Assembly: GCA_902788805.1 (NCBI GenBank)
Contig: CADALO010000002.1
Location: forward strand, 66,349-130,348
DNA: 64,000 bases
Source of the DNA: an uncultured Bacteroidota bacterium
Lineage (GTDB): Bacteria; Bacteroidota; Bacteroidia; Bacteroidales; P3
Reading direction: 5' to 3'
Shown: positions 10,396 through 60,826 of the stretch, piece after piece
How positions within the stretch are numbered: position 1 is the stretch's first letter
Layout of the letters: each line of letters starts with the position of its first letter
Made by a program: the position numbers and the translations under genes
Notes under the pieces: model-generated
Seen by the model: only the letters and a program-made list of their open reading frames with translations
Databases searched by the model: none
What the model was told of the DNA's origin: nothing

Positions 10396-10421
10396 TTTGT
10401 GTTCAAATTACCGTTAAATCT

Positions 10422-11138
10422 CTACTTCCACAAACCGCGATGAGTGTAAGCGGCATCGATAAGGTCGTGGATCATAGCGTAACGACGGCTGTTGAACTCA
10501 CCGTTGATGGTAGCCTGATCGAAGTAGTCGCTCAGGACCAAGCCGTTAGCCTGGATATCGTCCCAGTTGTCATTGAGACGCTTAACATCAGAACTGGTGA
10601 AATAGTAGGCGTCGACATTGTTGAAGGTACCCTTCATATTGTGGCCGTATCCCGGATATTCGGTGATGGTGATAGTGCCGCCGTTGGAGATGTACCAAGC
10701 GGTATCGCTGACGGCAATCAGGAGCACATTGAGGCCCGAAGGATTGAAGAAAATGTCGGCGATAGAGTCAAACTTGAAGTCACGCAGACGATCGGCGGTG
10801 AGGACGTTCGAGAGCGTGTAGGTACCCGTGGTGGTATCCGAAACCTGGAAGCCCATAAACGGGAATGCAAGCGCCTGCTCGCGGAGGTTCACATTGGCAA
10901 AAATGTCAATGGTTCCGATGACGGCCTGATTTTCGATAACGGTATCGATGTTATCGGTAATCGTCGAAGCGAAGTGGATAGTGGTGTCATTGCTATAATA
11001 GCCATTCTGACCGGTGATTGTAATCTCAGCGCTTCCGAGGAGACCCTCTTCTACGGCATCGATTATCAAACCTTCGTCGCACGATGAAAGCGACATCATA
11101 AGGAGTGCTACAGCACTGAAAAGTAAACTTTTTTTCAT
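10422..11138 (-). CDS. hypothetical lipoprotein
   Basis: 238 aa. MKKSLLFSAVALLMMSLSSC lipobox. I recognise no family. Confidence 0.7.
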   Translation of the reverse strand: MKKSLLFSAVALLMMSLSSCDEGLIIDAVEEGLLGSAEITITGQNGYYSNDTTIHFASTITDNIDTVIENQAVIGTIDIFANVNLREQALAFPFMGFQVSDTTTGTYTLSNVLTADRLRDFKFDSIADIFFNPSGLNVLLIAVSDTAWYISNGGTITITEYPGYGHNMKGTFNNVDAYYFTSSDVKRLNDNWDDIQANGLVLSDYFDQATINGEFNSRRYAMIHDLIDAAYTHRGLWK

Positions 11139-11191
11139 AATTGTGATTGTTTTATTAAAACTTGGAATGAATTATATACATTAACGTGGTT

Positions 11192-11506
11192 TTACAGATT
11201 TTGTTTCATTTGAACCAAAAAATTTTTCAATTCGGTCAAAGTTTCGACAATCTGGAGGTTCCTGTCGGGTGCTTTGTCGCTCTTAAGTTGCTGGCGTGCA
11301 CCGTCTAACGTCAATCCACATTCTTTTGTAAGATAGTGAATCCTGCGCAGCAAATCGATGTCCTGCTGAGTGTAGCTTCGGGTACCTCGCTTGTTTTTGA
11401 CCGGACGCAGCTCCTTGAATTCCGTTTCCCAAAAGCGGAGCATCGAGGTGTTTACGCCCAACATCTCGGCGACTTCGCCAATGCTATAATACAATTTCCC
11501 TTCCAT
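11192..11506 (-). CDS. small MerR-family transcriptional regulator
   Basis: 104 aa. N-terminal HTH YSIGEVAEMLGVNTSMLRFWETEF...RGTRSYTQQDIDLLRRI is typical of MerR. Confidence 0.85.
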   Translation of the reverse strand: MEGKLYYSIGEVAEMLGVNTSMLRFWETEFKELRPVKNKRGTRSYTQQDIDLLRRIHYLTKECGLTLDGARQQLKSDKAPDRNLQIVETLTELKNFLVQMKQNL

Positions 11507-11593
11507 ATTGTTGAATTTATGATTGTTAACTTATAAATAGCGGCCTAAGGCCCTCGCCCGCCCTTCCACGCGCCAAGCAGGGACCAACACTGG

Positions 11594-11677
11594 TTGTTGT
11601 CCGCTTGTTGTCCGCTTGATGTCCGCTTGTTGTCCGCTTTAAAAGCGGACAACAAGCGGACATCAAGCGGACAACAA
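11594..11677. repeat. near-perfect hairpin whose arms are tandem 11-nt units TTGTTGTCCGC / TTGATGTCCGC
   Basis: ttgttgtccgc ttgttgtccgc ttgatgtccgc ttgttgtccgc ttt | aaaa gcggacaacaa gcggacatcaa gcggacaacaa. The roughly 33-bp complementary arms show no mismatch. Lies between the LptD-like stop (11732) and the MerR start (11506). Confidence 0.9.
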
Positions 11678-11731: not shown

Positions 11732-14347
11732 TTAGTAAACATAGTAGCCTTGGTTGGATTGGTAGTTCTCGCGTTTCTCGTATTTGACATCGGACAACGA
11801 GCTGGCTTTCACGTTGATAGAGAAGTTCCAGCTCTTGTAGTAGCCGAAAGGCACCCAGTTGAAGCGCATCTCCCAGCAGTGGAGGTCACGGTAGATATCG
11901 ATGCTGGTGTACGACATACCCTTGTTGGTGAAATCATAGCCTGTCGAGAAGTTGAACTTCCAGTTCTCGGTCAGAGAGAAGTTGCCCGACACTGATACCG
12001 AGTGGGTTATATCACGTTTTATGTTGAAGCGGGCGGCATCGTAGGCGCTGACATAGCTGAGGGTGTAGTTGAGCGATATGTTCCACGGCACCGAGAAGTC
12101 GGCGTAGGTGCCCATCATCAGCGACGGGCTGAGATCGTAGGGCGTTTGCATTATTGGGGCTATCATTTCGCCTTTGCCTTTGGGCACATCTTTCTTGAAG
12201 GTGTTTTCGTTCAGGCTCCACGACAGTTGCGCGCTCCAGGTGGACTGCTTGTGGAGGAAGAGTTTTTTGCGTGTGTTCCAGAGGAAGACGTTATGCTTGT
12301 TGCCGAGTGTGTCGATTTCGTAGGGCGAGAAGGAGCCTGAGTAGTTCAGTACGAGCATTTTGAACAGCGTGGTGCGGCCCGACACGTTGAGGTCCGACCA
12401 GTTGAGCGAGTCTCTGGCTATGTCGTAGTTCATCGACAGAGTCAGGCTTTCGATCAGCATCACTTTCTTCAGCTCGTCGGCGGTGTCGCGCAGTGGTTTT
12501 ATCTTGGCTTCCAGGTTATTGCTGACAGAGAAGCCTATCTGTCCCGAGCGGCCGTCGGCTGGGCCTCCATAGAGACTTTGTTCGAAAATGGAGTAGCGGT
12601 GAACGTAGCCGGTGGTGTCGGTGTACGACTTCCAGTAGCCAAAGCGTTCGCTGCCGAAGTCGGGGCGGTAGTTGAACGACAGGCTTGGGTTCACGACGTG
12701 GCGCAACGCCTTCAGCGGGCCGTACTTGAAGTTGAACATACCGTAGATGCGGGTGGAGAGCGATGAGTTGAACGACACATCGCGATTGGCTCGGAATCCG
12801 CGTATGGTGTCTATCTTGAGCACACCGTTCGAATCCAGGTTCTTATCGATGGTTGACCAGTGCCAGCGCTCGTTGTAGGACACCGAGTTGGTCCAGTTGA
12901 AGAACTTGAGAACCTTGAGCGTGCTTTGTATCGGCAAGCGGTGGCTGATGCCGTATTGCATCTGGTTCAGTATACTCTTTTTCAGGATGTTGGTATCCTG
13001 CGCATTGACATTGTTAGCCCCCTCGAGGACATACGACATCGAGATGTTCTCGTACCACTTGTAGGCTCCCGAGGGCACTTTGCGTCGCAGCGGATAGAAG
13101 GTGTTGCTGCTCAGCGAGAGCGAGGGTAACTGTATGTTCATCAGGCCGGTCTGTATGTTGTAGGACTCGCGGGCCGACAGCGCGAGATTGAACCAGGAGC
13201 CAAGCGAGGTGGAATAGCTGACGCTTGAGGTCGTGGTGCTGTTAAAGTAGTCGTTGGCGTTTGTCGTGTTGCGGTTGTAGTTACGGCTGATGAGGTTCAC
13301 ATTGGCCGAGAAGCGGCTGTTGGGATTGGCTTTGGCGTCCTGGTCGTGTCGCCAGGCAACCTTGAAGTCGCCATACTTGTTGAAGGTGTTGGTATCGCCG
13401 CGGATACCGGTCTTGGTGATGCCGTAGCGTATGTCGAAGTTGCCCTTGTACTTGTAGCGGCGGTAGTAGTTCGACTTGGCTTCAGCGGCCCAGCTCAAGT
13501 TGGTGTATATCTCGCCGATGAGGGCAAGGTCGACGAAGTCGTTGATTGCAAAGTAGTAACCGCCGTCTTTCAGGTAGTAGCCACGGCCATTCATCCAGCC
13601 ATAGGATGGCATAAGGATGCCCGAAGTGCGGTCGTGAGCCAGCGGGAAGAAGGCGAAAGGCAGGGCCAGCGGAGTGGGCACATCCTCGATGCTGACATAG
13701 GCCGGACCGGTGAAAATCTTGTCGTTGGCAATAAGCTTCGACTCTGAGAAGTTGATGGCAAAATGAGGATGGGCGTAGTTGCAGGTGGTGTATTGGCCGC
13801 TGCTGAGGTACATCACAGAATCGTTGATTTTCTTAATCTTGTCGCCGTGCAGGTAGCCGTCGCCTTCCTGCGTTATGACACCGTAAATGATGCCTTTTCC
13901 GCTGTTGTAGTTGTAGGTCAAAGTGTCGGCGTTGTACTCTGAATCGCCTTGCTTGAATATCGGGCGCCCCTTGTACTTGCCGCTGCTGTCGGCCACACCG
14001 CGGGCGTGGAGCTGTTGCCGGTCGAAGTCCAACTCGACGGCATCGGCCTTGAGGTTCATACTCTGGAAGGTTATTTCACCGTCGCGGTACAGAAATGCCT
14101 TTTTGCTGTCAAGGTCTATCGCCACAGAGTCGGTGGCCTTGTAGGTGACAATCTCGGTCACGGCATCCTTCGACAACGGCAGGAGGCCATTCGAGCTGAC
14201 GACAGAGTCTTTTGCAAGAGACATAGAATCAGACTGTTGGTTGCTGCGAGCAATCGTATCTTGCGCGTAAACAGCCTGTGCTCCCACAAACAGAAAAAGT
14301 AACGGAAGTAGCCAAAGTTGAAAATTATATGATTTTCTGATACTCAA
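11732..14347 (-). CDS. LptD-like LPS-assembly outer-membrane protein (Bacteroidota type)
   Basis: 871 aa. The only nearby in-frame start is TTG 14347. Signal peptide ...LLFLFVGAQAVYAQ. OstA-like N-terminal region (AFLYRDGEITFQSMNLKADAVELDF...GKGIIYGVITQEGDGYLHGDKIKK) followed by a long barrel. Confidence 0.65.
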   Translation of the reverse strand: MSIRKSYNFQLWLLPLLFLFVGAQAVYAQDTIARSNQQSDSMSLAKDSVVSSNGLLPLSKDAVTEIVTYKATDSVAIDLDSKKAFLYRDGEITFQSMNLKADAVELDFDRQQLHARGVADSSGKYKGRPIFKQGDSEYNADTLTYNYNSGKGIIYGVITQEGDGYLHGDKIKKINDSVMYLSSGQYTTCNYAHPHFAINFSESKLIANDKIFTGPAYVSIEDVPTPLALPFAFFPLAHDRTSGILMPSYGWMNGRGYYLKDGGYYFAINDFVDLALIGEIYTNLSWAAEAKSNYYRRYKYKGNFDIRYGITKTGIRGDTNTFNKYGDFKVAWRHDQDAKANPNSRFSANVNLISRNYNRNTTNANDYFNSTTTSSVSYSTSLGSWFNLALSARESYNIQTGLMNIQLPSLSLSSNTFYPLRRKVPSGAYKWYENISMSYVLEGANNVNAQDTNILKKSILNQMQYGISHRLPIQSTLKVLKFFNWTNSVSYNERWHWSTIDKNLDSNGVLKIDTIRGFRANRDVSFNSSLSTRIYGMFNFKYGPLKALRHVVNPSLSFNYRPDFGSERFGYWKSYTDTTGYVHRYSIFEQSLYGGPADGRSGQIGFSVSNNLEAKIKPLRDTADELKKVMLIESLTLSMNYDIARDSLNWSDLNVSGRTTLFKMLVLNYSGSFSPYEIDTLGNKHNVFLWNTRKKLFLHKQSTWSAQLSWSLNENTFKKDVPKGKGEMIAPIMQTPYDLSPSLMMGTYADFSVPWNISLNYTLSYVSAYDAARFNIKRDITHSVSVSGNFSLTENWKFNFSTGYDFTNKGMSYTSIDIYRDLHCWEMRFNWVPFGYYKSWNFSINVKASSLSDVKYEKRENYQSNQGYYVY

Positions 14348-20790: not shown

Positions 20791-20810
20791 TCGGTCGTTG
20801 ACAGGTTTTT

Positions 20811-20882
20811 GTTGATATGTTGATATGTTAGATGTTGATACGTTTTGGCCATATCAACATCAAACATATCAACTTATCAACG
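20811..20882. repeat. hairpin built from tandem GTTGATAT octamers, between two genes of the sulfonolipid cluster
   Basis: gttgatat gttgatat gttagat gttgatac g ttttgg cc atatcaac atcaaac atatcaac ttatcaac g. The arms are complementary apart from about 3 mismatches. Sits 7 nt after stop 20889 and 21 nt before ATG 20790. Confidence 0.85.
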
Positions 20883-20888
20883 AATTAT

Positions 20889-22622: not shown

Positions 22623-22828
22623 AAGTTATTAACAAAATTCTATCAAACTTTACCAATGTAAAATTTGATAAGAATTTGGTAAAACTTTGAGTAAACTTTG
22701 ATAGGAAGATGGTACCTCGAAATCAGGGAGTTAAAATTTGGCCATTTTTGCCCTTTTTCGGCCCCTTCCGGAGGTGAGTTATTAACAATTTCGGAGGCCT
22801 GTTTTTGGCGAAAATGAGTTTGGCACGG
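22623..22828. repeat. dispersed intergenic element, copy A (inverted relative to copies B and C)
   Basis: Aligns over about 206 nt with the reverse complement of 32040..32250. This includes a 54-nt identical block (22647-22700 = rc 32173-32226). GTTATTAAC palindromes at 22625 and 22778. Confidence 0.9.
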
Positions 22829-32039: not shown

Positions 32040-32250
32040 CCGTGCCAAAAATGGAGTGCGGTGCCATAAAAAACGCCCTTCAAAAATGTTAATAACTTTT
32101 CATTTTCAGCCTCAAAAAAGGCCAAAAAACGGCATTTTTCAACACGCTGATTTCCAGATACCAAATTCCTACCAAAGTTTACTCAAAGTTTTACCAAATT
32201 CTTATCAAATTTTACATTGGTAAAGTATGATAGATTTTTGTTAATAACTT
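32040..32250. repeat. dispersed intergenic element, copy B
   Basis: See copy A. Contains five phased 11-nt units at 32159-32213 (TACCAAATTCC TACCAAAGTTT ACTCAAAGTTT TACCAAATTCT TATCAAATTTT) and GTTAATAAC at 32088 and 32240. Confidence 0.9.
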
Positions 32251-37902: not shown

Positions 37903-37932
37903 ACAGCGGGCCGCACGGCTCGCTGTTTTTTT
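37903..37932. terminator. bidirectional terminator shared by glmS (+) and the tRNA-Lys pair (-)
   Basis: acagcgggccg ca cggctcgctgt followed by ttttttt on + strand. On the minus strand the same stem is followed by TTTTCATTT. The T-run abuts the 3-prime end of tRNA copy 1. Confidence 0.75.
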
Positions 37933-37933
37933 G

Positions 37934-38006
37934 TGACCACGCTGGGGCTCGAACCCAGGACCCCATCCTTAAAAGGGATGTGCTCTACCTGCTGAGCTAC
38001 GTAGTC
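37934..38006 (-). tRNA. tRNA-Lys (anticodon UUU), copy 1
   Basis: rc = GACTACGTAGCTCAGCAGGTAGAGCACATCCCTTTTAAGGATGGGGTCCTGGGTTCGAGCCCCAGCGTGGTCA. 7-bp acceptor stem (one G-U), anticodon loop CTTTTAA, GGTTCGAGCC T-arm. CCA is not encoded. Confidence 0.9.
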
Positions 38007-38025
38007 AACGCATTGATTTTCCTTG

Positions 38026-38098
38026 TGACCACGCTGGGGCTCGAACCCAGGACCCCATCCTTAAAAGGGATGTGCTCTACCTGCTGAGCTACGTAGTC
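38026..38098 (-). tRNA. tRNA-Lys (anticodon UUU), copy 2 (identical)
   Basis: Identical 73-nt sequence, 92 nt from copy 1. Confidence 0.9.
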
Positions 38099-38129
38099 AA
38101 CGTATAGTTTACCCTCAATTTTGAGTTTG

Positions 38130-38443: not shown

Positions 38444-38473
38444 GTCTGTTTGATGTCCGGACATCAAACAGAC
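38444..38473. repeat. 30-nt perfect palindrome GTCTGTTTGATGTCC|GGACATCAAACAGAC
   Basis: Read directly. Arms contain TTGATGTCCG, the same decamer found in the 11594 hairpin. Confidence 0.9.
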
Positions 38474-46657: not shown

Positions 46658-46784
46658 TCGAAAAAGGGCCAAAAACGCCATTTCTCAACACCCTGATTTC
46701 CAGGTACCAAATTCCTACCAAATTTTACCCAAATTCTTATCAAATTCTAACTAAAGTTCAAGATGGTAGAATTTGATAGGAATT
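46658..46784. repeat. dispersed intergenic element, copy C (diverged, same orientation as B)
   Basis: GGCCAAAAACGCCATTTCTCAACACCCTGATTTCCAGGTACCAAATTCC TACCAAATTTT ACCCAAATTCT TATCAAATTCT AACTAAAGTTC aligns with copy B and keeps the 11-nt phasing. It lacks the GTTAWTAAC palindromes. Confidence 0.8.
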
Positions 46785-46948
46785 TATCAAAAAGTCGGGT
46801 GGAAAATAGTATAGTGGACGGGCAGTTTCAAGACCAGTTTGGGGATAAAAAATTAGGGGCGATGTAAAAATCGGAAGCGAATTGTTACATATTAAAGCGA
46901 ACAGATAAAATGTCGAAAAACCCTTTATATAATACTTAAAACCAAATA

Positions 46949-47353
46949 ATGATGAAAACACTAAAGAGATTTGCAATGCTGCTTTTCGCTGCAGCAATGA
47001 TTTTTGCCGCTGCCGCGTGCAGCAAGGAAGAGGGAATCGAGGAAAGCCAGATTGTCGGCAAGTGGCAGTTCCCCACCGATGTCGAATACAGCGATTTCAA
47101 AGGTAACACCCTGGAAATAAACGGCGACCACACGGCGATTATGCATATAAGCCGCTTCGAGGTGGGTTTTGCCTGGACGCTGGAGGGGTCCCATTTCGTG
47201 GCCACCCGCGAACAAAGCGGGGTGCGGGCCGACATCGATTTCGAGATAACCGGCATCAACGAAAGCGCTATGAGCATTGAGGGCTGCTACACTCTGAGCG
47301 GAACCAAAACCGAACGACATAACATCACGTGCACGGTCAGCAAGCTGCAATGA
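46949..47353 (+). CDS. hypothetical small lipoprotein
   Basis: 134 aa. MMKTLKRFAMLLFAAAMIFAAAAC lipobox. Confidence 0.7.
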   Translation: MMKTLKRFAMLLFAAAMIFAAAACSKEEGIEESQIVGKWQFPTDVEYSDFKGNTLEINGDHTAIMHISRFEVGFAWTLEGSHFVATREQSGVRADIDFEITGINESAMSIEGCYTLSGTKTERHNITCTVSKLQ

Positions 47354-47363
47354 GCACGTCGTT

Positions 47364-47398
47364 TTCACATTCGGGGGCGCCCGCGGCAAACGGGCGCC
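47364..47398 (+). terminator. rho-independent terminator
   Basis: GGGGCGCCCG cggcaaa CGGGCGCCCC ttcttttt: 10-bp perfect GC stem plus T-tract, 11 nt after stop 47353. Confidence 0.85.
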
Positions 47399-47481
47399 CC
47401 TTCTTTTTACCAGTGCGAACAAATAAAATTTGGTCGTTCCGCGAAAAGTGTATATCTTTGCAAATCGAAACAATCGAAAAT

Positions 47482-48282
47482 ATGGGCAAAGTAGTATTGA
47501 TAACCGGTGCGTCGTCGGGCTTTGGCAAGGCGACGGCCGAACGTTTGGCGGCAAAGGGCTACACCGTTTATGGAACCAGCCGTAACGAGATGCAACACAA
47601 TGACATACACTTCCTTGTGATGGATGTTCGCGACCACGATTCCGTGTCGCGTGGCGTGGAACGGATTGTCGAGGAGCAGGGCAGGATAGACGTGGTTGTG
47701 AACAACGCCGGAATGGGCATCGGAGGGTCGCTCGAGATGGCCACCGGCGAGGAGATTGAGCTGCAAATGGGCACCAACTTCCGTGGCTGCGTCAACGTGT
47801 GCCAGGCCGTGCTGCCGGTGATGCGCCGGCAGGGTGGGGGACAGGTCATCAACCTCAGTTCCATAGGCGGCGTGATGGGCCTGCCGTATCAAGGCTTCTA
47901 CTCTGCATCCAAGTTTGCAATTGAAGGCTTTACCGAGGCTTTGGCGGCCGAAGTTCGCGGTTTCGGCATCAAGGTCTCGATGGTGGAGCCGGGCGATTTC
48001 GCAACCAACTTCACCGCGCGGCGCAAGAATTCCGAATTGACCGCGAAAAGCGCCGCCTACGGCGCCAGTTTCGCCCGCTCCTTGGAACTCATCGAGAAAG
48101 AGGAGAACGGCGGCCTACGGCCCGAAAAACTGGCCAAAACGATAGAGAAAATCATCTGCAGCCGTCGCCCACGCCTGCGCTATGTGGTGGCCAACCTCGA
48201 GCAGAAGCTTTCGGTGCTGCTCAAACGCATCATTCCAGGCAACTGGATGGTAGGGATTTTAAGGAACTATTATAAAGTGTAA
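47482..48282 (+). CDS. SDR-family oxidoreductase
   Basis: ORF 47329..48282. ATG 47482 gives MGKVVLITGASSGFGKA. Catalytic YSASKFAIEG. Confidence 0.85.
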   Translation: MGKVVLITGASSGFGKATAERLAAKGYTVYGTSRNEMQHNDIHFLVMDVRDHDSVSRGVERIVEEQGRIDVVVNNAGMGIGGSLEMATGEEIELQMGTNFRGCVNVCQAVLPVMRRQGGGQVINLSSIGGVMGLPYQGFYSASKFAIEGFTEALAAEVRGFGIKVSMVEPGDFATNFTARRKNSELTAKSAAYGASFARSLELIEKEENGGLRPEKLAKTIEKIICSRRPRLRYVVANLEQKLSVLLKRIIPGNWMVGILRNYYKV

Positions 48283-54174: not shown

Positions 54175-54265
54175 TTCAACCATATATCAACGTTACTTCA
54201 ACGATAGTTTAACCATTATATATGGTAGAAATATGGTTGAACGATGGTTAAACGATGGTTGAAAT
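54175..54265. repeat. iteron-like array: three tandem 11-nt units ATGGTTGAACG / ATGGTTAAACG / ATGGTTGAAAT facing complementary CAAC-type units
   Basis: Units at 54233-54265. The left side reads TTCAACCATAT ATCAACGTTAC TTCAACGATAG TTTAACCATTA. 54175-54185 pairs perfectly with 54231-54241. Confidence 0.8.
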
Positions 54266-54283
54266 AGCGGAGCAAGTCCGTAG

Positions 54284-60397: not shown

Positions 60398-60530
60398 CAA
60401 ACTATTTTTGGATTGGCAAAAACAGATTTTTCAGATTTGCCATAAATGTGGTCGATAAGTATTGAAATAGCACTTTGTATGATATAGTTCATCGACGTAA
60501 TTGAGGCATAAAACAGCTGGTTCTGCACTG

Positions 60531-60649
60531 GGTCTTGTTCGTTCGTTGTTCGTTCGTTGTCCGTTTGTTGTCCGCTCGTTGTCCGATTACTGATCGAACA
60601 ACAATCGGACAACGAGCGGACAACAAATGGACAACGAGCGAACAAGACC
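60531..60649. repeat. second TTGTCCGC-type tandem-repeat hairpin
   Basis: ggtc ttgttcgttcg ttgttcgttcg ttgtccgtttg ttgtccgctcg ttgtccgatt ... aatcggacaa cgagcggacaa caaatggacaa cgagcgaacaa gacc. 11-nt units, with inner ~32-bp arms complementary apart from one G/A difference. Followed by CCCTTTTAT. Confidence 0.9.
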
Positions 60650-60826
60650 CCTTTTATCTATGGCTAAAGCAGTACGGCGCACTACTTTAGCCGATGGCCT
60701 ATCATGGGGCTTTAGTCAACCAATCAAAGTTTCAGCCATAGTTGAATCAACAAAAAAATAAGTTTTCTTTTTTGTACAATAAAGTCAAGGGAGAGTCGTT
60801 TTAAGTATATTAATTGTAAAAATAAA

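Follow-up and report, generated by a model that had tools for sequence, protein, structure and literature searches.

A dispersed family of intergenic palindromes with arms of 11-bp units in an uncultured Bacteroidales bacterium

The stretch of DNA analyzed here (the window, 64,000 nucleotides from an uncultured rumen bacterium of the order Bacteroidales) carries, between a gene of the LptD_2 family and a gene of the MerR_1 family, a long hairpin whose arms consist of tandem 11-nt repeats. The question raised by this locus is what an intergenic hairpin of such regular internal construction is, and by which processes it is formed and maintained. The initial annotation took it for something other than an ordinary terminator and suggested either an expansion mechanism or a protein-binding array, and we followed the element through its genome, through strains and a sister species, and through the RNA that covers the locus.

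The window hairpin and its family

The copy at 11594-11677 consists of four 11-nt units on the left, which are the T, T, A and T variants of TTGWTGTCCGC, and three inverted units on the right, with TTTAAAA between them (Table 1). An inverted-repeat search delimited arms of 36 nt (11605-11640 and 11642-11677) that are 100% complementary, so the stem is 36 bp long, and the first left unit (11594-11604) is unpaired; TRF returned period 11 with 4.2 and 3.2 copies. The perfect hairpin of tandem 11-nt units described in the initial annotation is therefore confirmed by the units as read, their period and the complementarity of the arms, and its stem is long and uninterrupted as stated there, only longer than the ~33 bp given. 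Folded as RNA, the hairpin reaches -75.6 kcal/mol (z = -13 versus shuffles). A scan for terminator-like sites found none at the element, and the statement that no T-run follows it on either strand holds. Rfam 15 gave no match for the hairpin at the gathering score, only sub-threshold microRNA-precursor models, which is what any long hairpin gives, and a 46-aa ORF across the element (11526-11666) is an artefact of the stop-free repeats that codon scoring removed. The palindrome extends outward into a left outer arm, which is conserved at the orthologous site of the sister species discussed below. The right-side partner of this arm has been deleted, and the window copy is thus a damaged one, which lacks one unit and an 18-nt outer arm on the LptD_2 side. 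The LptD_2 stop codon lies 55 nt from the element and the element 88 nt from the MerR start; the spacer on the MerR side probably holds the promoter of the MerR-family gene.

Table 1. Coordinates of the window hairpin, its surroundings and the related palindromes in the window
Feature	Position	Strand	Sequence, family or basis
Downstream neighbor, 104-aa MerR_1 family gene	11192-11506	-	PF13411
Spacer, element to MerR-family gene start	11507-11579	-	Contig-level RNA evidence
Left outer arm	11580-11593	.	GGGACCAACACTGG; alignment of 44 A-type copies including flanks
Left arm, unit 1	11594-11604	.	TTGTTGTCCGC
Left arm, unit 2	11605-11615	.	TTGTTGTCCGC
Left arm, unit 3	11616-11626	.	TTGATGTCCGC
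Left arm, unit 4	11627-11637	.	TTGTTGTCCGC
Center	11638-11644	.	TTTAAAA, palindromic around its middle base
Right arm, inverted unit 1	11645-11655	.	GCGGACAACAA
Right arm, inverted unit 2	11656-11666	.	GCGGACATCAA
Right arm, inverted unit 3	11667-11677	.	GCGGACAACAA
Upstream neighbor, 871-aa LptD_2 family gene	11732-14347	-	PF19838
30-nt perfect palindrome	38444-38473	.	GTCTGTTTGATGTCC|GGACATCAAACAGAC; single occurrence in the genome
Second family member, B-type	60530-60650	.	Units TCGTTGTCCGT / TTGTTGTCCGC / TCGTTGTCCGA, degenerate outer units

The genome containing the window (G000; 2.73 Mb in 25 contigs, ~50% GC) turned out to be rich in such elements. The genome-wide pattern search proposed at the outset found TTGTTGTCCGC 236 times against ~1.3 expected, and clustered TGTCC/GGACA words defined 79 loci with head-to-head hairpins of TGTCC units, which fall into three subfamilies, A, B and C. 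In 37 additional complete copies the units are of TGTAC type (TCGTTGTACAA and similar) in a like layout, so that the family amounts to at least 116 loci of ~100-150 bp each, or ~0.5% of the genome. The window hairpin, first viewed as a curiosity of three copies, is one member of this dispersed family. The TRF census of tandem repeats counted 202 arrays of period 11, by far the most frequent one, compared with 109 arrays of period 7 and 50 of period 8.

From the outside in, a copy consists of an outer arm, a run of 11-bp units (as a rule four) that have TTGT(C/A)C as their constant core, and a palindromic center rich in AT; the mirror image of these parts follows. The outer arms, CCAACWCYGG/CCRGWGTTGG, also written (G)TACCAACWCYGG and its complement, are common to all four subfamilies, and exactly 4+4 units are present in 53 of the 76 scorable loci (range 3-6 units per arm). 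Subfamily A, to which the window copy belongs, has 44 copies with units TTGWTGTCCGC and the center TTTWAAA; subfamily C has ~28, with units TYGTTGTCCAG and the center TCAWTGA; and in subfamily B, which includes the second copy of the window, the units end in CCGT or CCGA around the center GATCAnTGATC. An identical 67-nt inner core is found in 36 of the 44 A-type copies, where GTTTGATGTCCG is the usual junction of outer arm and first unit. The central base of the 44 A-type copies is T in 24 and A in 20, so the orientation of the center is random. Their inner three units are 85-98% uniform, the fourth, outermost one is variable, and complementarity between the outer arms is no more than ~55-65%, a gradient that fits homogenization starting at the center. 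Three B|C chimeras (C3:289323-289478, C5:42176-42331 and C6:14957-15112) have the asymmetric center AGTCACGAAC in common, and may have arisen by recombination of two subfamilies and been copied afterwards. Covariation of the outer arms as a sign of selected pairing was also considered and set aside, as it exceeds that of shuffled partners only weakly and is confounded by subfamily.

The TGTAC-type copies, for example C1:40827-40932 and C3:224517-224654, show a peculiarity of their own, since many have a one-sided conserved tail of ~70 nt (..AACCGCCTCATTTCCAGnCCTTCAAGGGA beside CCAAC) that gives the copies carrying it a polarity. In 12 of 15 cases the tail is directed at a gene start; the distances, however, are 86-1055 nt, and the tail was rejected as a fixed 5' leader. 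A search for empty outer-arm palindromes that could serve as docking sites found none, its matches being the TGTAC subfamily itself. Likewise, a conserved sequence ending in ATG beside some copies is followed by no ORF and was dismissed as a gene start.

Both other places in the window that the initial annotation had connected with the hairpin were confirmed. The copy it had noted at 60531-60649 is real, spans one base more on either side, and lies between divergent genes with 58-nt arms and a folding energy of -90.9 kcal/mol (z = -14). The decamer said to recur at 38444-38473 is indeed there, as the perfect palindrome contains TTGATGTCCG. GATGTCCGGACATC is found nowhere in the genome except in this palindrome, which is probably, to judge from its sequence, the relic of an A-type copy collapsed to 1+1 units.

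The distribution of the family is narrow. Apart from the window genome itself, only one of 41 relatives has the exact A pattern, and there the copies are few. Within the genus, 9 of 143 species have TGTCCG arrays, which are missing from all 118 genomes searched in 17 other genera of the same taxonomic family. TGTCC at 11-nt phase, with species-specific spacers, occurs in 30 of the 143 species (0-3 matches for the reversed control), and four phased TTGTCC were absent from 300 other genomes of 203 genera of the order. When GTDB was scanned with one genome per species, the hairpin architecture was found, among the matches listed, only in metagenome-assembled genomes named "uncultured Bacteroidales" from reindeer, cattle and yak, and the listed matches in unrelated phyla were plain direct arrays and not this element; IMG/VR gave 76 pattern matches, none with the hairpin architecture. 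The sequencing runs that contain the window locus are bovine and sheep gut metagenomes. Among the genomes searched and the matches listed, the hairpins thus appear to be confined to a single ruminant Bacteroidales genus. Taken together, these data place the window hairpin in a superfamily of dispersed, non-coding DNA palindromes that is specific to this lineage.

Variation between strains and between sister species

Ten contigs from ten other samples cover the window locus, and ten more cover the locus C1:48600. Those at the window locus encode the same MerR protein in flanks that are ~99% identical, and the element is present in all 20 contigs. The strain contigs at the window locus show that the full-length element there has both outer arms, and L038-L047 carry CTCCGTACCAACACCGG beside the right arm, where the window copy has lost its 18 nt. 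The number of units per arm varies from 3 to 5 among these ten contigs and G000, and while unit counts from short-read assemblies may carry errors, the variation recurs across assemblers and studies. The T/A pattern of the units is TTAT|TATT, TTTT|TTTT or mixed, and the center is TTTTAAA, TTTAAAA or TTTTTTTAAA; in addition, one copy contains a 3-nt insertion and another lacks the other outer arm as well as 48 nt of the adjoining flank. Changes of these kinds recur in the ten contigs at C1:48600, again in flanks of ~99% identity. Slippage of units, inversion of the center and deletion of flanks therefore occur between strains, and the expansion mechanism suggested by the initial annotation is borne out directly by the gain and loss of whole 11-nt units that a comparison of repeat counts, also advised there, revealed at both loci.

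Within the collection, the species nearest to G000 is G149, and the flanks of the two are 82-95% identical. G149 has 267 TGTCC-array matches and not a single TGTCCG array, it shows the same sharp 4+4 mode, and the element is present at all nine orthologous loci tested. With 79 + 37 copies in the genome and these sites occupied in the sister species, the hairpin does not correspond to the neutral local duplication, with few copies and empty orthologous loci, that the initial annotation had named as the opposing outcome. Shared occupancy at 9/9 sites means that the sites are old and vertically inherited. In six of the nine (the window locus, C1:48600, C9:76482, C6:57137, C12:148346 and C5:13669), an A-type core in G000, with CCGC units and TTTWAAA, stands against a C-type core in G149, with CCAG units and TCAWTGA, although the outer arm and the flanks are orthologous; at the other three, both species have C-type cores with similar, not identical, unit mosaics. 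A different core subfamily inside orthologous flanks shows that cores have been replaced in concert, and judging from these alignments, either A might have replaced C or C might have replaced A at the fixed sites. A-like cores are also found in further species of the genus (RUG737 and others).

We consider that these findings are best explained, with a probability of roughly 0.6, by a family of REPIN/BIME-like DNA palindromes that is driven by conversion and slippage at fixed, vertically inherited intergenic sites and is not primarily a terminator. When the DNA is single-stranded or negatively supercoiled, the palindrome would be extruded to form a hairpin or cruciform, and the hairpin would slip in replication with gain or loss of units, or might be broken by the resident SbcCD nuclease; genes for SbcC and SbcD are present in G000. 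Repair from other copies by ectopic gene conversion would then homogenize the cores from the center outwards, and overwriting of whole cores by another subfamily would account for copies that are near-identical within a genome while orthologues differ between sister species. We infer the conversion mechanism from this pattern of sequences, in which neither a break nor a tract of conversion was seen, and the length of the outer arms, ~12-17 nt, which is short for RecA-mediated exchange, counts against it. A sharp preference for 4+4 units in both species, a TTGT(C/A)C core that stays constant at helical phase and an excess of copies between divergent genes hint at some constraint, and because slippage and conversion leave these three features unexplained, there is room for a protein-docking role.

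A related but more doubtful proposal is that the family is an intragenomic replicator that does not jump and is independent of RAYT, in which the outer arms would be fixed docking sites and the cores interchangeable cassettes with four phased TTGTCC units in each arm; one type of cassette would overwrite another at dozens of loci, so that gene conversion would act as a drive among non-coding palindromes. Such a replicator may be driven by breakage and repair of the hairpin or by a putative dedicated TTGTCC-binding recombinase or architectural protein; if the version with a TTGTCC-binding protein were true, the arrays would also help to organize promoter regions.

Alternatively, the elements could be MITEs, whose outer arms would be terminal inverted repeats recognized by a transposase in trans; the interiors of the subfamilies would then record successive bursts of amplification, and the replacement at orthologous loci would be re-insertion into a preferred target. 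Outer arms common to four subfamilies with different interiors agree with this idea, as do truncated copies, the chimeric B|C copies, a copy number that ranges from 1 to ~80 among species with a patchy occurrence within the genus, and empty sites in distant species, where only 13-30 nt separate the two genes of the window locus. Other observations speak against transposition. No target-site duplication was seen outside the outer arms of the 44 A-type and 37 TGTAC-type copies, a weak test given that no clean empty site in a close relative was available. Presence/absence polymorphism was sought at four loci, of which two yielded too few contigs, and none was found in the 20 strain contigs at the other two. 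An autonomous partner was also absent from G000, in which all arrays form head-to-head pairs that enclose no gene and no gene is bracketed by half-elements, and the three Y1 transposase genes of the genome have unrelated flanking palindromes. The sharing of 9/9 loci with the sister species and the lack of hairpin-type elements among the 76 IMG/VR matches point in the same direction, and we regard a MITE family as unlikely and transposition as a weaker reading than the conversion-driven family.

Gene context, transcription and possible binding proteins

Because stop-free repeats yield false ORFs, genes were called by codon scoring; 16 copies that a first, cruder gene caller had placed inside genes were artefacts of this kind and disappeared, and every copy in G000 (79 + 37 loci) is intergenic. 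Of 74 copies flanked on both sides, 36 lie between divergent, 28 between tandem and 10 between convergent genes, compared with 20, 43 and 10.5 expected from intergenic length (chi-square p = 1e-4), statistics that depend on our own, crude gene calls. Elements lie at a median of 205 nt from the start codon that faces them, far enough for a promoter to fit in between. Two loci have a canonical terminator of GC hairpin and T-run behind the upstream gene, with the element located past it.

At the window locus, an RNA contig from run X15 with a word depth of 113 covers 10400-11519 and ends 13 nt upstream of the MerR ATG (11506), compared with an RNA depth of 4.6 for the LptD_2 gene, both at the level of contigs; all four runs compared with the window consist of contigs, which cannot show RNA 5' or 3' ends. 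The RNA contig of the MerR operon begins downstream of the element, which is a hint against a terminator.

An element acting at the RNA level, such as a bidirectional factor-independent terminator, a stabilizer of mRNA 3' ends or a target of RNase III, would make use of the extreme stability of the fold and of the position of the window copy closely behind the LptD_2 stop, between a weakly and a strongly RNA-covered gene. RNA contigs at other loci run into the element, and a gene end is found on at least one side in 38 of the 74 copies. These observations are outweighed by the lack of a U-tract directly after the hairpin and by the placement of half of the copies between divergent genes, where there is no transcript to end, rather than at gene 3' ends; separate canonical terminators adjoin some copies. 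The AT-rich centers of all subfamilies are perfect DNA palindromes to the middle base, a form typical for a palindrome in DNA and not for a selected, stable loop in RNA; it is the sequence that is conserved, not pairing alone, and chimeric copies with mismatched arms persist. A function in RNA is accordingly very improbable. The element is not primarily a transcription terminator, a reading that is unlikely on these grounds, and the doubt that the initial annotation cast on an ordinary terminator was justified by the missing T-tract, the divergent-gene excess and the neighboring canonical terminators alike. Its usual place is upstream of promoters, and any effect there would be exerted at the DNA level, by absorption of supercoils or by docking of proteins.

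The docking of a protein is a possible, though not a probable, explanation of the whole. The 4+4 phased TTGTCC sites would bind a lineage-specific DNA-binding protein, for which a nucleoid-associated protein, a protein of the ribbon-helix-helix type or a recombinase are candidates; it would coat the DNA upstream of promoters along a single face of the helix, and co-evolution with it would account for both the palindromic shape and the concerted changes. The 11-bp period corresponds to about one helical turn, and over subfamilies A, B and C eight of the 11 unit positions are constant and two bases of the spacer differ. The sharp 4+4 mode in both species, the nearly two-fold excess between divergent genes with its 205-nt median and the presence of other phased 11-nt families in G000 would also be expected. 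TGTCC stays constant amid species-specific spacers in the 30 of 143 species, but this constancy is partly built into the search pattern. Furthermore, unit number varies freely among strains, the partner protein is only putative, and the neighboring genes are functionally unrelated, the pairs at four annotated loci being LptD_2/MerR, Peptidase_S66/HATPase, GSHPx/MarR and WecG/Colicin_V. It is also implausible that eight units at ~44 loci could have changed by parallel mutation without conversion. If a binding protein does exist, the phased arrays that lie upstream of promoters, more than 100 in number, would point to a layer of chromosome organization as yet unknown.

Two observations concern the locus C5:13669 itself. 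The perfect A-type copy there (C5:13669-13767) lies 73 nt past the end of sbcC and is convergent with it, which is probably a coincidence. The orthologous locus of the sister species (L076, G149:C48) contains ~240 nt between terminator and element that are absent in G000.

Relation to known repeats and other repeats of the genome

Among the known systems, the REP, REPIN and BIME elements of enterobacteria and pseudomonads are the closest in lifestyle, because the present family is likewise high in copy number, extragenic, hairpin-forming, differentiated into species-specific variants and joined with other repeats in mosaics. REPs have stems of 6-13 bp and a GTAG or CGTC tag (PMC3733652), and REP/REPIN elements are described as vertically inherited at orthologous intergenic sites and long-persisting (10.1101/2024.10.14.618302, 10.1101/2021.07.10.451892). 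In extragenic position, high copy number (79 + 37 loci) and orthologous sites (9/9 in G149) the family agrees with them. In contrast, its arms consist of 36-60 bp of phased 11-nt units with ends GGTACCAAC.. and no GTAG or CGTC tag, and it favors divergent promoter regions over gene ends. G000 possesses three Y1 (IS200/RAYT-like) transposase genes of PF01797 (C2:275264-275827, C12:19687-20163 and C20:20099-20569), and their flanks contain palindromes of other kinds, namely CCCCGTAGGGG (5 copies), GCCTCGAAGAGGC (13) / GTGTCGAAGACAC (9), and GTGCCTCCGGCAC, with no TGTCC or TGTAC arrays at the flanks of any of the three. An association of the 11-nt-unit hairpins with RAYT was therefore rejected, and the family differs from REPs in stem, tag and RAYT flanks; the three Y1 genes with their own small palindromes are candidates for the true REP-RAYT systems of this genome.

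The other comparisons are with parts of the architecture. Like the MITEs Correia, ERIC and BrickBuilt, the elements are small, non-coding and dispersed and have inverted ends. BrickBuilt/MITEPgRS of Porphyromonas gingivalis is a Bacteroidales element with an internal minisatellite (PMC4596501). Its units form a direct array between terminal repeats, whereas in the present family they form both arms of the palindrome.

Foldback (FB) elements of Drosophila and other eukaryotes have long inverted arms of short tandem subrepeats; they are kilobase-sized, rearrangement-prone and variable in unit number, and are linked to a transposase-bearing form. Arms of tandem subrepeats in variable number are common to both, an analogy in which nothing indicates homology. 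Another analogy is with the parC site of plasmid R1, in which two sets of five 11-bp repeats are bound by ParR. Contiguous phased 11-bp repeats, sometimes in two opposed sets, recur here with an exact 11-nt period and 3-6 units per arm, but iteron and centromere arrays such as parC are single plasmid sites beside the gene of their binding protein, whereas more than 100 copies are present in this chromosome with no adjacent partner gene. With intrinsic terminators, finally, the elements have in common a GC-containing hairpin and intergenic position, but the stem is 3-5 times longer, internally periodic and without a T-tract.

The family is thus a previously undescribed dispersed intergenic palindromic repeat, of which the unit architecture and the concerted replacement of cores are unusual, and in the literature we found no dispersed palindromic repeats of such kind described for gut or rumen Bacteroidales. 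Dispersed palindromic repeats have been well studied in Proteobacteria; here, palindrome arms are built from helical-turn units, and the wholesale swapping of cores between sister species, at the same sites and in orthologous flanks, provides an unusually clean case of concerted evolution, with cores near-identical within the genome and hypervariable between strains. The family also lends itself, as a natural system, to the study of how perfect palindromes of 100-150 bp are tolerated and remodeled by bacteria, and its polymorphic unit number could serve as a strain marker. Two contigs of G000 terminate within copies, and the DNA contigs of other metagenomes are broken at the element, where the summed word depth is 420-550 compared with 5-9 in the flanks; since the repeats break short-read assemblies in this way, they matter for the quality of metagenome-assembled genomes.

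G000 is unusually rich in phased short-unit repeats in general. It contains 14 separate period-33 arrays, whose unit is a conserved GGTGTGTCGCACCGTC block and a variable half, 34 period-7 CTCCGTT arrays and ~20 period-11 arrays of CACTCCCCTTT. Hairpins or arrays of other families are found in the window at 20808-20884, 46705-46811, 54175-54269, 32159-32215 and 22662-22707, with units TGTTGATA (period 8) and TACCAAATTCT, ATATGGTTGAA and AATTTGATAAG (period 11). At 37931-38102, ~340 nt from the palindrome at 38444, a sequence of 92 nt is duplicated exactly in tandem (1.9 copies, 100% identical) and has the appearance of a pair of identical tRNA genes side by side. In the strain contigs L056-L065, at ~2030-2390 (corresponding to G000:C1 ~47200-47570), hypervariable arrays of 8-9-nt units of the AAACCCTTT type lie upstream of an Fe-hydrogenase/Fer4 gene; their unit number is different in every strain, and strains L060, L061 and L063 have in their place an unrelated 77-nt spacer with AATTCAT heptamers.
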